Below are positions 9,620 through 14,183 of a stretch of 64,000 bases of DNA, one piece after another. The notes under the pieces were generated by a model, which saw nothing but the letters and a program-made list of their open reading frames with translations, searched no databases and was not told the origin of the DNA. How positions within the stretch are numbered: position 1 is the stretch's first letter; each line of letters begins with the position of its first letter. Position numbers and translations under genes: made by a program. Origin of the DNA: Vampirovibrio chlorellavorus (lineage in GTDB: Bacteria > Cyanobacteriota > Vampirovibrionia > Vampirovibrionales > Vampirovibrionaceae); the NCBI GenBank assembly GCA_001858525.1, contig LAPX01000001.1, positions 161,473-225,472 on the forward strand, given 5' to 3'.

Positions 9620-10870
9620 ATGCCTCAAAAGCCCATCTATCATTACCCCGTCCGTCTAGGAGCGGCTTGCGCTATTTCGGTGATGGCCTTGTCCGCAGCC
9701 CCGGCCTTTGCCTATCAACTGGACGCCCCCAATCGAACCCTCAACGTGGCCCCCGGGGCCAGCCCCAATGAGACCACCAACGATCTCAAAGGTGCTTTCA
9801 ACTATCTCGTCAATCGCAGTGACAAAGCCAACCAGTGGACTGTAAAATTCGCTCCCGGCAACTACTATATTGTGAGCCAAATTCCCATTCGAAACCTGGA
9901 AAACACCGTATTACAAGGCGATCCCAATAAACCGGCCAAGCTGATTAAGGACAAAACCTTTAACAGCGCCACCGCCGGAGAGTATTTACTGAATTTTCAA
10001 TTCGGCAAAAAGCTTTCCATGAACGGGCTACAGTTTTACGGACAAACCAGTTTTGCCGCCAGCCTGGCACCGGTGTGGCCGGATCAAGGTGTCTATTTTG
10101 GCTCCTGTAATGGGGTAACCGTGCAAAAAAACAGCTTTTATAACTTTGGCAACGCCGCCCTGCGGGTCACCACCACCGAACGGGATCCGGTGCCCGGGGT
10201 AAACAGCTTTAATACCGTGGTGGCCAATAACCTGTTCAACAACATCTATCAGATTTCCACCACGCCCAACGATGAAATTCATGGCGGCAGCACCAATTAC
10301 GTTTTGCAAAACAACGTGTTCTACAACCTGCGAGGCTCCATTAAATTCGCCTCTCGCACCGCCGGGGCCAAAAACGTGAAGATCCTCAATAATAAGGTCA
10401 ACGGCGGCGATCACTACGCCTTTGAAATTAACAATTACGATGACATGGAAATTCGGGGCAACAGCCTGCAAAACCTCAAGGAATTTGCCATCAACATCTA
10501 CAACAATCCCCGGGCCAGCCAGTCCTTCAATTGGGGCAACAATTTCATCATCGCCGATAACCTGATTAATACGGTGGGCCGGGGGATTCGCTTTAGCACC
10601 GAGCCTTACGCCGATGGCACCCTAGTGACGCCCAGCAACGTCACGTTCACCAACAACAGTCTGGACAAAGTCACTGACACCAGCGGCCTGCCAGCCATCG
10701 CCCAGGTCAACGGCACCATCAAAGGGCTAACCATTACCAGCAATAAATTCAACAACATTACCAACAAAAAATACATTGGCTACAATGCGGCCTCCAGTAA
10801 CGTGACCTACTTTAACAATCAAGCTAACGGACAACCTTACGGACCGCAACAAAGTACGACCAGTAACTAG
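9620..10870 (+). CDS. secreted right-handed parallel beta-helix repeat protein (pectate-lyase-fold; possible adhesin or polysaccharide-active enzyme)
   Basis: Signal peptide AISVMALSAAPAFA; Asn-rich periodic repeats (NNxFxN..., VxNNxF) typical of PbH1 beta-helix. Confidence 0.75.
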   Translation: MPQKPIYHYPVRLGAACAISVMALSAAPAFAYQLDAPNRTLNVAPGASPNETTNDLKGAFNYLVNRSDKANQWTVKFAPGNYYIVSQIPIRNLENTVLQGDPNKPAKLIKDKTFNSATAGEYLLNFQFGKKLSMNGLQFYGQTSFAASLAPVWPDQGVYFGSCNGVTVQKNSFYNFGNAALRVTTTERDPVPGVNSFNTVVANNLFNNIYQISTTPNDEIHGGSTNYVLQNNVFYNLRGSIKFASRTAGAKNVKILNNKVNGGDHYAFEINNYDDMEIRGNSLQNLKEFAINIYNNPRASQSFNWGNNFIIADNLINTVGRGIRFSTEPYADGTLVTPSNVTFTNNSLDKVTDTSGLPAIAQVNGTIKGLTITSNKFNNITNKKYIGYNAASSNVTYFNNQANGQPYGPQQSTTSN

Positions 10871-10893
10871 GCAAAGCGATCTCACAACAACAG

Positions 10894-10932
10894 GCGGGCT
10901 GAGGAAGCCAGGGTTCCCTTAGCCCGCTTTTG
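10894..10932 (+). terminator. rho-independent terminator
   Basis: GCGGGCTGAGG ... CTTAGCCCGC stem followed by TTTT immediately after the beta-helix gene. Confidence 0.55.
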
Positions 10933-11161
10933 CTGGAAGGCTTTATAAGGCGGCCAGCACCTTCCTCACATGAGCTGGCTATGAAAGAATGAAAGATAAA
11001 GTGCCATCCTGCAAGCCCAGGTTGGTACACTATGTTAAGAAATATAAACATCATTTTCAGCCGCCTCCTCAAGTATTGGTTCAGTCTGCCGATACTGATA
11101 AAGGAAAGGGCTAGCCAAAATGGTACACTCGCGAATTCTCTCCAAGAGAAGGACAGCATGT

Positions 11162-11770
11162 ATGTTCTCCACCCTGCGGCCTCAGCATTACCATCCATTC
11201 GGATTTACCCTGGCCGAATTGTTGATTTCTTTAGCCATTTTGGGAGTGATTGCCACCTTCACCATCCCCAAAATTCTTTCAAGTCAGCAGGATTCCAAAT
11301 ACAGCGCCTCCGCCAAAGAAGTGGTCGCCATGTTTTCCGACGCTTACCAACAAGCAAAGTTTTCCAGTAGTAACGTGGCCAGTATCGCACCTGCCAACTT
11401 GTTTCAATACATGAACTATGTAAAAACTGACACCACCTCTTCTATTGATGGTCTTTACACGCAAGGCGTCTACGGTGTTAATTGCTCTCAAAGACCCTGT
11501 ATTCAGCTGCACAATGGTGGCATTGTGTTGGCCAGTCAATGGAATTTCGGGGGAACCGGCACCACCAACTCCATCAACTTTATTTACGACCCCGATGGAA
11601 AAGTAACCGATGGCACCACCACCGGGCCCGGTAAGTCCGTCATTTTTTACCTCTATGCCAACGGGAGAATCGTAACCAGCGCCAATGTTCTGCCCGGGAC
11701 CACCAATCAATCTGGCGGAACGTATTCGGCAAACGCCAACCTGGACCCGCCCTGGTTCAGCTGGAATTAG
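11162..11770 (+). CDS. type IV pilin-like protein (prepilin-type N-terminal cleavage/methylation domain), paralogue 1
   Basis: Leader ...HYHPFG|FTLAELLISLAILGVIATFTIPKIL with Glu+5; RBS GAAGGA before ATG 11162 (ORF opens at 11120); Cys pair mid-protein; C-terminal DPPWFSWN shared with paralogues. Confidence 0.8.
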   Translation: MFSTLRPQHYHPFGFTLAELLISLAILGVIATFTIPKILSSQQDSKYSASAKEVVAMFSDAYQQAKFSSSNVASIAPANLFQYMNYVKTDTTSSIDGLYTQGVYGVNCSQRPCIQLHNGGIVLASQWNFGGTGTTNSINFIYDPDGKVTDGTTTGPGKSVIFYLYANGRIVTSANVLPGTTNQSGGTYSANANLDPPWFSWN

Positions 11771-11888
11771 AATTGATTTTTACAATTCCAAAAATCACCC
11801 TCAAGTTTTGGGATACCCTGTCGATAAGCGTCGTAGGTCAATTTATAAAGCGCCAAGTTAGTGCAGTCCTTTTCAAGAGGTTTAACCC

Positions 11889-12524
11889 ATGTATGAGCAG
11901 ACAGACAGACAGACAGACAGACAGACACGCCAGCTTAAACAACTTAATCTGAGCTGGCAAGGCTTTACACTCGCTGAACTGCTCATTAGTCTAGCCATTC
12001 TGGGCGTCATCGCTACCTTTACCATTCCTAAAATCCTGAGCGCCAGCCAAAACGAGGCAAATGAGGCGAAAGTAAAAGAAGCCGCAGCAACCCTTTCAGC
12101 AGCGTATCAACAAGCCAAACTAGACGGGGTCATCAATAGCAATACCAAGGGCTCGGATCTCACCCCATACCTGAATTATCTGGCCTGGGATAACAATGGA
12201 ACCACGACTATCGATCACGGGCCTTGGTCCACTTTTCAAACTTGTAATATCACTTTTCCCTGCGTCAAACTCGCGAACGGAGCAACGATCCTGTTTGACG
12301 GGGCGCAATTTGGGGGCACGGCTACCACCAACATGATTGCTTTTTATGTAGACCCGGAACCCGGCTACTCAGGCACCACCAATCCCGTGCGTTCCGTTTC
12401 AATGGTACTTTATTATGATGGCTTTATAACATCCCGCGCATACACCCGAGCGAATAGCTTTACCTCCGCCGGGGGACCTTACGGCCCTGGCAGTTTTGAT
12501 CCACCCTGGTTTACCTGGAACTAG
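11889..12524 (+). CDS. type IV pilin-like protein, paralogue 2, with (CAGA)7 repeat in the leader-coding region
   Basis: MYEQTDRQTDRQTRQLKQLNLSWQG|FTLAELLISLAILGVIATFTIPKIL...DPPWFTWN; RBS AGAGG. Confidence 0.8.
   Translation: MYEQTDRQTDRQTRQLKQLNLSWQGFTLAELLISLAILGVIATFTIPKILSASQNEANEAKVKEAAATLSAAYQQAKLDGVINSNTKGSDLTPYLNYLAWDNNGTTTIDHGPWSTFQTCNITFPCVKLANGATILFDGAQFGGTATTNMIAFYVDPEPGYSGTTNPVRSVSMVLYYDGFITSRAYTRANSFTSAGGPYGPGSFDPPWFTWN
11898..11927 (+). repeat. tetranucleotide repeat (CAGA)7CA inside the 5' coding region of pilin paralogue 2
   Basis: Read directly: cagacagacagacagacagacagacaca, encoding QTDRQTDRQT. Confidence 0.95.
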
Positions 12525-12629
12525 GGCAAAAATACACTTTTTACTATGATTTGAGGCGTTTATTAAAGTTTTTGGATGATGGGTCGATACCAAGAATGTC
12601 TGGAACCTAGCAATCGAGGTCAGTTGGTT

Positions 12630-13297
12630 ATGTTTCTAGCCCCCCCCCCCCCCCCCCCCCCCCCCGAAAACGCCTAAAGTCAGTCCTGGGCTTTACACTC
12701 GCTGAATTGCTGATTTCTCTGGCCATATTAGGGGTGATTGCTACCTTTACCATCCCTAAAATTTTATCCACCCAGCAAAACGCTCAGAACGTTGCCAAGG
12801 CAAAAGAAGCAGCAGCAATGATTTCAGAGGCTTTTCAGAAAGCAAAACTGAATGGTGTTATTACTTCAGCTACCAAACCCTCTGATTTAGCTGCTTACAT
12901 GAATTACGTCAGTCTGGACACTTCTGGCACACTCATGGATCACGTACCAGGCGTTGGTTCCAGGCCTTGTAATAATACATATCCCTGTATAAAACTTCAT
13001 AATGGCGGTATACTAAGTTTTGATGATGGGGCTACCTTTGGCGGCACTTCCAGTTTACATGCAATGTTTATTCTTTTTGATCCAGACGGGATTTACAGTG
13101 GTTCCACCGCGGACGGGCCTTCTAAATCTGTGCAATTTGCTATTTATTACGATGGCTTCTTAACGACCAGGGGGATAGTCAAAACCGGTACTGTTTATAG
13201 CTTGGGATCTCTTTCACCTGCTCCTAGCGAAGATCCATCTTGGTTTAGCTGGCAAGAATCTGGCGTCAGTACCATTGAGCCCGTAAGGCAAGAATAG
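12630..13297 (+). CDS. type IV pilin-like protein, paralogue 3. Its 5' end contains a 26-nt poly-C tract; ATG 12630 is out of frame with the pilin body in this assembly (phase OFF, or a homopolymer length error)
   Basis: ATG at 12630 (MFLAPPPPPPPP...) reaches a stop; the pilin frame (…PPP RKRLKSVLG|FTLAELLISLAIL… DPSWFSWQ) has no in-frame ATG after the stop at 12608. C25 or C28 would restore frame. Confidence 0.6.
12640..12665 (+). repeat. homopolymeric poly-C tract (about 26 nt) in the leader-coding region of pilin paralogue 3
   Basis: Read directly from the sequence. Confidence 0.95.
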
Positions 13298-13334
13298 TAC
13301 AATGGCGGCGCAGTGTTAGAGGAGCCAGCCGCGC

Positions 13335-14183
13335 ATGAGCATGACCGAAACCATTCCCGCCGTTTTGCCACTGGAAGACGGGTTTACGGATGTGCTGGGC
13401 AAAGCCCGCAAAGGCCTCAAGCTCTCCACAGAAACGCTGGCGGAACGCACCGGTTTATCCGCTCCTCAGGTGGAAGCCGCTTTTCAAGGCCAGTTGGACG
13501 AATCGACCCTACTCAAACTGGCCTTCACCCTGAATTTGCATGGGCCTTCTTTAATCGCTCTGGCCAAAAACGAATGGCAGCCCAAGCGCTTTCCAGATCT
13601 GGATGGATTGCAGCAGTTCACCACCTGGTACGGGGACATGACCGTCAACGCATACTTGCTGTGGGATACCGCCACCAAAGAAGCAGCCACCTTCGATACC
13701 GGGGCCAACTGTCAGAATATACTGGATTTCATCGAGTGTAACGGACTCTCCCTGAAAAAAATATTCATCACCCACACCCACATGGATCATCTGGCCGATC
13801 TAGAGCGTTTGGCCGGCAAGCATCCCACCGCCGTCTGTTACGGGTCCGCCGTGGATAACCCCTTGGGCCTCAAGCCGCTGATTGAGGGAGATGGGTTGAT
13901 TGTGGGCAATCTGAGCATTCGGGTACTGGGCACTTCTGGGCACACCCCGGGGGGCCTGAGCTACCGGGTTGAGGGACTGAGCCAGCCCGTGGTGGTGGTG
14001 GGCGACGCCCTGTTTGCCAGCTCTATGGGAGGGGCCCCCTACGCCTATCAGGAGGCCCGCAGTAATAACCTGAACAAACTTCTGACCTTGCCGGAGCAGA
14101 CCATTATCTGTCCCGGCCATGGCCCCATGACCACGGTGGGCGAAGAAAAAGCCCACAACCCGTTTTTCCCGGAAACCAAATAG
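13335..14183 (+). CDS. MBL-fold metallo-hydrolase with N-terminal HTH domain
   Basis: THTHMDH (HxHxDH) metallo-beta-lactamase motif plus downstream His/Asp ligands; N-terminal LSTETLAERTGLSAPQV helix-turn-helix. Confidence 0.8.
   Translation: MSMTETIPAVLPLEDGFTDVLGKARKGLKLSTETLAERTGLSAPQVEAAFQGQLDESTLLKLAFTLNLHGPSLIALAKNEWQPKRFPDLDGLQQFTTWYGDMTVNAYLLWDTATKEAATFDTGANCQNILDFIECNGLSLKKIFITHTHMDHLADLERLAGKHPTAVCYGSAVDNPLGLKPLIEGDGLIVGNLSIRVLGTSGHTPGGLSYRVEGLSQPVVVVGDALFASSMGGAPYAYQEARSNNLNKLLTLPEQTIICPGHGPMTTVGEEKAHNPFFPETK

Follow-up and report, generated by a model that had tools for sequence, protein, structure and literature searches.

A poly-C tract in a prepilin leader of Vampirovibrio chlorellavorus as a probable slipped-strand switch of pilin translation

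The window analysed here, a stretch of 64,000 nucleotides from the genome of Vampirovibrio chlorellavorus, contains three tandem pilin paralogues on its forward strand: pilin 1 (positions 11162-11770), pilin 2 (11889-12524) and pilin 3 (12630-13297). The first of these, which comprises 202 amino acids from the ATG at 11162, has a leader without a simple repeat and is identical to the recorded protein P0195, and the second, of 211 amino acids, is identical to P0087; both recorded proteins are encoded on one contig. Only two long simple repeats occur in the 64 kb, and each is situated between start codon and cleavage site in one of two adjacent pilin genes. In the leader-coding region of pilin 2, a (CAGA)7 repeat (11898-11925, forward strand) directly follows ATG-TAT-GAG, and in pilin 3 an uninterrupted run of 26 C residues (C26; 12640-12665, forward strand) begins 7 nucleotides past the start codon at 12630-12632. 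A GAGG at 12616-12619, 10 nucleotides 5' of that ATG, is a putative Shine-Dalgarno element. The C26 tract is the sole homopolymer longer than 9 nucleotides in the window: a C12 probe gave 15 overlapping matches, all of them within the tract, against an expectation of 0.10 from shuffled sequence, and the expectation for a C26 run in the window, calculated from its C fraction of 0.273, is approximately 1e-10. A promoter and terminator scan around 12630 returned nothing informative, and a comparison with Rfam across 10800-13500 returned no credible RNA family.

At the recorded tract length, the frame of the ATG at 12630 reads TTT CTA GCC, then (CCC)8, then GAA AAC GCC, and terminates at a TAA (12675-12677), yielding a product of 15 amino acids (MFLAPPPPPPPPENA). 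The frame that encodes the pilin itself is closed 5' of the tract by a TAG (12608-12610), and between that stop and the Gly(-1) codon at 12689-12691 it contains no ATG, GTG or TTG; the earliest such codon is a TTG at 12707, already within the mature protein. Reinitiation or translational coupling after the TAA at 12675 was considered as a means of translating pilin 3 and was ruled out, since the stretch between that stop and the cleavage site contains no start codon and offers only a CTG at 12686. A first-pass annotation of this DNA had described a 26-nucleotide poly-C run between the ATG and the prepilin cleavage site, the termination of the ATG frame at 12675 and the lack of an in-frame start after the stop at 12608, and all of these descriptions held, the run being exactly C26. 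Its in-frame lengths, given as C25 or C28, were off by one: the ATG joins the pilin frame at C21, C24, C27 and C30, so that the recorded C26 requires a change of +1 or -2.

Across the cleavage site (marked here by a slash), the pilin frame reads ...PPPRKRLKSVLG/FTLAELLISLAILGVIATFTIPK..., such that the basic remainder of the leader, RKRLKSVLG, is encoded at 12665-12691 up to Gly(-1), and the mature coding region extends from Phe(+1) (TLAELLISLAILGVIATFTIPK...) to the stop codon (12692-13297, forward strand). The sequence ...RKRLKSVLG/FTLAELL displays the features of a class III leader, with a short basic leader, Gly(-1), Phe(+1) and Glu(+5). When the product was scored with an in-frame tract, both models of the prepilin N-terminal cleavage/methylation domain exceeded their cut-offs (Pfam PF07963, 22.8 against 21.2; NCBIfam TIGR02532, 22.1 bits against 16.3), and the NCBIfam equivalogs for ComGE, GspG and PilA all scored below theirs. 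A profile of the family matched the N-terminal helix of solved type IV pilins, over the N-terminal 40-100 residues, namely PilE1 (8pfb, E 5e-8) and geopilin; the globular domain gave no sequence match. The mature region is 66% identical to P0001, and the more than 1000 homologues derive nearly all from Vampirovibrio and Vampirovibrionales genomes and metagenomes. Members of this family are also found in metagenome-assembled genomes (MAGs) labelled Doudnabacteria, Oculatellaceae, Coleofasciculaceae and Gammaproteobacteria (L021, L024, L026, L031, L032 and L063), and one, P0183, in an entry titled Microcystis phage MaAM05; the odd labels probably result from mis-binning of contigs that belong to predators living alongside cyanobacteria.

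The leader of pilin 3 has a counterpart in a related genome, in which the protein P0013 begins in frame with MFLCPPPPRKRLKITRG immediately ahead of FTLAELL. That leader corresponds to MFLC-P4-RKRLKITRG/FTLAELL, and the leader in the window to MFLA-Pn-RKRLKSVLG, so that the two share an MFL start and a basic tail, the proline run of P0013 being the shorter. Additional in-frame poly-Pro leaders were found in relatives (P0102, P0032 and L080), and a protein search with the 46-residue N-terminus alone recovered short fragments, none with a poly-Pro leader. Since both flanks of the tract match the leader of P0013, they constitute one conserved leader and an assembly join is excluded; by this comparison the tract lies in a genuine coding context. 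An origin of the tract in poly-G/C read noise or in a chimeric join is, for these reasons, scarcely credible: runs of such artefact-like character do occur among the loci compared, as in L046 (3523-3589), where G9, G13, G8 and G20 crowd the very end of a contig, but the window tract is internal, and the order of genes across it fits the pattern of the family.

The repeat in pilin 2, which the first-pass annotation had mentioned as a (CAGA)n tract in the neighbouring gene and which is present as described, in 7 copies, is in frame at 4, 7 and 10 copies and is thus in frame as recorded. The orthologues of pilin 2 (P0077, P0063 and P0100, at 75-80% identity) have ordinary leaders without a CAGA repeat, and the (CAGA)4 and (CAGA)10 forms of pilin 2 were not found in the protein collection. 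At the syntenic locus of a relative (L082), the flanks are conserved at 82-84% DNA identity, but a single pilin is present (L082 3501-4097, against three in tandem at 11120-13297 of the window). That single gene indicates that the three-gene array and both simple repeats are specific to this lineage, and the array is best read from these alignments as a recent local expansion. The pilin 3 gene also lacks the stop that is customary in the family (window 13255-13297 against L082 4095-4140) and continues for 14 further codons (ESGVSTIEPVRQE), which correspond to intergenic DNA in the single-pilin locus; its C-terminus therefore extends 14 residues beyond the WFSW(N/Q) with which family members usually end.

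The recent origin of the array, together with the loss of the usual stop, would accommodate a reading of pilin 3 as a recently inactivated duplicate in which the tract has been expanding neutrally. The same reading could draw on the length of the tract, which exceeds those of relatives (8-15 nucleotides) and could be the outcome of unchecked expansion once selection on the gene had ceased, and on the protein collection, in which conceptual pilin 3 products (C18 to C33, or truncated to a TTG or GTG start) are absent. That absence is equally expected if annotation discarded a frameshifted gene. Inactivation is nevertheless very unlikely, given that the open reading frame of approximately 200 codons is free of stops and frameshifts apart from the tract, that all invariant columns of a 12-sequence family alignment are kept, and that this architecture is found repeatedly, across many genomes and with some of its members in frame.

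That recurrence was surveyed in Vampirovibrionales genomes that represent their species, across 79 loci totalling 554 kb. Among 20 sense-strand C runs of at least 8 nucleotides, 12 are located within 200 nucleotides upstream of a pilin FTLAEL motif, a zone that makes up 1.9% of the surveyed sequence and in which 0.39 would be expected (binomial p 3e-16, a value inflated by the shared ancestry of paralogous 5' modules, behind which stand about 3-4 independent sequence classes). Expressed per gene, 9.5% of pilin 5' regions contain such a run, against 0.28% of random 200-nucleotide windows. These tracts are all of C on the sense strand (12 of C, none of G); so strict a bias is not demanded by a pure model of DNA slippage, and it may derive from the shared ancestry of the 5' modules or from a constraint at the level of RNA or translation.

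At least three distinct tract architectures are found at the 5' ends of these pilin genes. In the first (class A), to which the window belongs, a start codon is followed by Cn and then by GAAA(A/T)C, and most tracts are preceded by a strong ribosome-binding site of the form AGGAG-N7; its further members are L018 (GTG-C15), L003 and L080 (ATG-GTA-C12 and ATG-GTA-C11), L015 (ATG-TA-C8, twice) and L043 (GTG-TA-C12). Six of the seven recorded states in this class, the window included, are out of frame with the start codon proximal to the Shine-Dalgarno sequence, a proportion close to the two-thirds expected for random phase. In the second (class B; L010, L029 and L006), a tract of the form ccttaC9-13gagccgg lies approximately 25 nucleotides upstream of the ATG. 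In the third (class C), aaagttttaC8-9 is separated by approximately 20 nucleotides from an ATG without a Shine-Dalgarno sequence (L034 35-42 and 668-675; L046 2905-2913; L056 4001-4009; L074 19-27). The class C tracts overlap a promoter-like -35 element and spacer, with TTTACC, 16 nucleotides and TAAAAT in L034, and with a GATAAT approximately 6 nucleotides before the ATG; judged by this layout, they could control the promoter spacing of a leaderless mRNA.

Within class A, some paralogues with long leaders display a further arrangement, in which a short open reading frame begins at the start codon next to the Shine-Dalgarno sequence, passes through the C tract, and has a stop codon that overlaps an internal pilin ATG (L015 3867-3915 and 4689-4737; L043 3876-3905). 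The overlap takes the form ATGA in L015, where the tract is C8, and TAATG in L043, where it is C12. This layout suggests termination-reinitiation coupling in some tract states, and the tracts concerned may switch between leader forms instead of acting as a simple ON/OFF device.

A difference in tract length was found at one of these loci. L080, a metagenome scaffold from ENA, and L003, which comes from a V. chlorellavorus-like MAG, are 99.97% identical over 6739 bp. Besides a single mismatch they differ by one gap, C11 against C12 in a class A tract, and this gap decides whether the upstream ATG is in the pilin frame. Both forms of the product are on record, a 243-residue in-frame form on 5 contigs and a 227-residue form from an internal ATG on 3, and all 8 encode an identical product of the next gene (P0032). 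The contigs may include duplicate deposits, but the difference holds between no fewer than two independent assemblies. An assembly miscall could account for the C11/C12 difference. An adjoining paralogue (L080 3006-3017; L003 3868-3879) carries an interrupted tract, CCCCCCtCCCCC, which encodes MVPPPPQ and is the same in both; it is likely a stabilised former switch. Length polymorphism was thus seen at a paralogous locus in a relative, and the window tract is known from one assembly: exact-protein look-ups with pilin 2 and with the adjacent MBL hydrolase recorded no other assembly of the same strain, and metagenome scans gave 0 matches both for a degenerate MFL-polyC-RKRLK leader pattern and for C12 followed by N15-45 and codons for GFTLAE.

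Taken together, the sequence comparisons argue, with a probability of roughly 0.7, that pilin 3 is a slipped-strand phase-variable prepilin gene, the translation of which is set by the length of its poly-C tract. The tract is a G:C homopolymer in the range in which hypermutability is expected (about 8-9 nucleotides or more), and it is placed where the gain or loss of single units would alter expression, the outcome being frame-dependent and the gene having no alternative start. Under this reading, slipped-strand mispairing during replication would add or remove C residues, one at a time. With a tract length divisible by 3 (24 or 27), the ATG at 12630 would read through seven or eight prolines and RKRLKSVLG into pilin 3, and at other lengths, including 26, translation would end after 15 codons, with the gene OFF; the OFF assignment at C26 follows from that early stop combined with the lack of another start. 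One tract length in three would correspondingly be ON, and, since the tract lies in a leader that is removed at Gly(-1), the mature pilin would stay the same whatever the tract length. An analogous (CAGA)n switch may operate in the adjacent pilin 2, and the two repeats together would allow a clonal population to express differing combinations of the three pilins. We infer, for this organism, variation in tract length, its reversibility, a true OFF state and any phenotype that would accompany it.

The length of a 26-nucleotide homopolymer is unreliable on every sequencing platform, and the OFF call may consequently be wrong by 1 nucleotide. A reading built on that fact holds that the true modal length is 27 or 24, that the poly-Pro leader is constitutive, and that any regulation takes the form of an EF-P-dependent throttle. 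A change of 1 nucleotide does restore the pilin 3 frame, and the in-frame poly-Pro leaders of P0013, P0102, P0032 and L080 provide precedents for such a product. Translation of eight or nine prolines in a row should depend on EF-P, and for this reason the ON lengths may be translated slowly under either reading. A tract of 24-27 C residues, however, cannot be genetically stable, so that a mixed population would be present even if the modal length were in frame. In addition, two of the surveyed classes place the C run upstream of the ATG (L010 and L029; L034, L046, L056 and L074), where it cannot encode proline, which indicates that the conserved feature is a DNA or RNA tract and not a peptide; and six out-of-frame states among seven start-proximal tracts, in independent assemblies, would be improbable if all were errors. 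Constitutive expression behind a miscalled length is on balance unlikely. An error of 1 nucleotide and true phase variability are in any case compatible and not mutually exclusive. The preference of the first-pass annotation for phase variation over a length error stands, and is strengthened by the leader of P0013, the concentration of poly-C runs at pilin 5' ends, the C11/C12 pair and the presence of two leader repeats in adjacent genes; the part that is less secure is the OFF state at exactly C26, which rests on one assembly.

A further reading places the control in decoding, and supposes that ribosomal slippage by tRNA-Pro, or slippage of RNA polymerase, gives an in-frame product at any tract length, the tract serving as a rheostat. 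Every shifted pairing on a homopolymer is cognate, ribosomes can be expected to stall on a row of eight Pro codons, and the stop/start overlaps in L015 and L043 suggest translational interplay in some paralogues. Moreover, tRNA-Pro is prone to frameshifting on CCC-C motifs (PMC7577736, PMC4519876). Coupling of the kind suggested by those overlaps is inapplicable to pilin 3, which has no start codon after the TAA at 12675, and restoration of the frame from C26 would demand a net shift of -1 or +2. Recoding would also add to variation at the level of DNA without replacing it, and as the principal explanation it is quite improbable. As a modifier of slipped-strand phase variation it is plausible: ribosomal or transcriptional slippage on 26 C residues could give some expression at nominally OFF lengths, which may leak because tRNA-Pro slips easily on C runs.

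The survey raises the broader prospect of an order-wide pilin 'phasome' in the Vampirovibrionales, which are non-photosynthetic, predatory relatives of cyanobacteria. In it, a greatly expanded family with sense-strand poly-C modules at many of its 5' ends would lead each cell to display its own subset of pilins stochastically. We hold this proposal tentatively, at somewhat less than even odds. Its switches may comprise at least three architectures, with tracts inside the leader open reading frame, in the 5' untranslated region, or in a promoter-like spacer. If true, the display of pilin subsets might, for example, match prey surfaces or evade pilus-specific phages; no contingency-locus system would have been described before it either in the cyanobacterial lineage or in a predator from the environment; and the array in the window, which combines a C26 gene, a (CAGA)7 gene and a gene that is fixed, would represent a recently expanded example of it.

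To our knowledge, nearly all simple-repeat contingency loci have been described in host-adapted pathogens. Confirmation of the switch would extend this strategy to an environmental organism that preys on algae, with the pilin subunits as its direct target, and would explain why these genomes contain numerous pilin paralogues, some of them apparently frameshifted or with odd internal ATG starts. Annotation is affected already, in that pilin 3 is missing from the protein collection and the L003 pilin is called from an internal ATG; pipelines that drop or truncate tract-bearing genes in this manner lead to an undercount of the pilin repertoires of these MAGs. The class of mechanism is well known; new here are the lineage and the length of the tract, its recurrence across many paralogues, and its target, which is the prepilin leader of the pilin itself. 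Literature searches turned up no paper that connects Vampirovibrio or Melainabacteria with phase variation or simple repeats, and on type IV pili the V. chlorellavorus genome paper goes no further than to record the presence of the genes and the observation of pilus bundles (PMC4451040).

Several known systems bear comparison with the two leader repeats. The (CTCTT)n repeat of the Neisseria opa genes is located in the signal-peptide coding region, and opa and the tetranucleotide loci of Haemophilus influenzae follow the same logic of frame switching. The pilin 2 repeat resembles both, with (CAGA)7 placed just past the ATG and one-third of copy numbers in frame, and differs from both in gene class and in lineage, the CAGA repeat being absent from pilin 2 orthologues. 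In Streptococcus gallolyticus, phase variation of a (GCAGA)n repeat in a short leader-peptide open reading frame upstream of the pil1 pilus genes is reported to give stochastic pilus expression (PMC3894217). The likeness to the pilins of the window lies in a repeat within a leader sequence linked to pilus genes, and the difference in the use of a separate leader peptide with attenuation-like control of a terminator, whereas here the repeat is part of the pilin's own leader. In Bordetella pertussis, a promoter poly-C governs the fimbrial subunit genes fim2 and fim3, and deletion of one C alters expression (PMC10172299, PMC1891110). This arrangement is approached by L034, L046, L056 and L074, which have C8-9 upstream of the ATG in a promoter-like spacer; the tract of pilin 3, in contrast, is inside the open reading frame and would act on the frame and not on promoter geometry, and the Bordetella structures are chaperone-usher fimbriae, whereas pilin 3 is of the type IV kind.

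In Neisseria gonorrhoeae and N. meningitidis, the part of pilC1 and pilC2 that codes for the signal peptide contains a poly-G tract, which produces phase variation of piliation by frameshifting, and typical contingency tracts in Neisseria measure 9-20 nucleotides (PMC13017665, PMC5953494), shorter than the C26 of pilin 3. The two systems further differ in that PilC is an adhesin of the PilC/PilY1 type with a Sec signal peptide, whereas pilin 3 is a pilin-type subunit with a class III leader, and in that the one belongs to host-restricted pathogens and the other to environmental, predatory Vampirovibrionales. In their design they correspond closely: each has a G:C homopolymer in the open reading frame of a type IV pilus protein, within the N-terminal targeting peptide that is later cleaved off, such that a change of one nucleotide in either direction switches the frame and changes of length that preserve the frame leave the mature protein unaffected.
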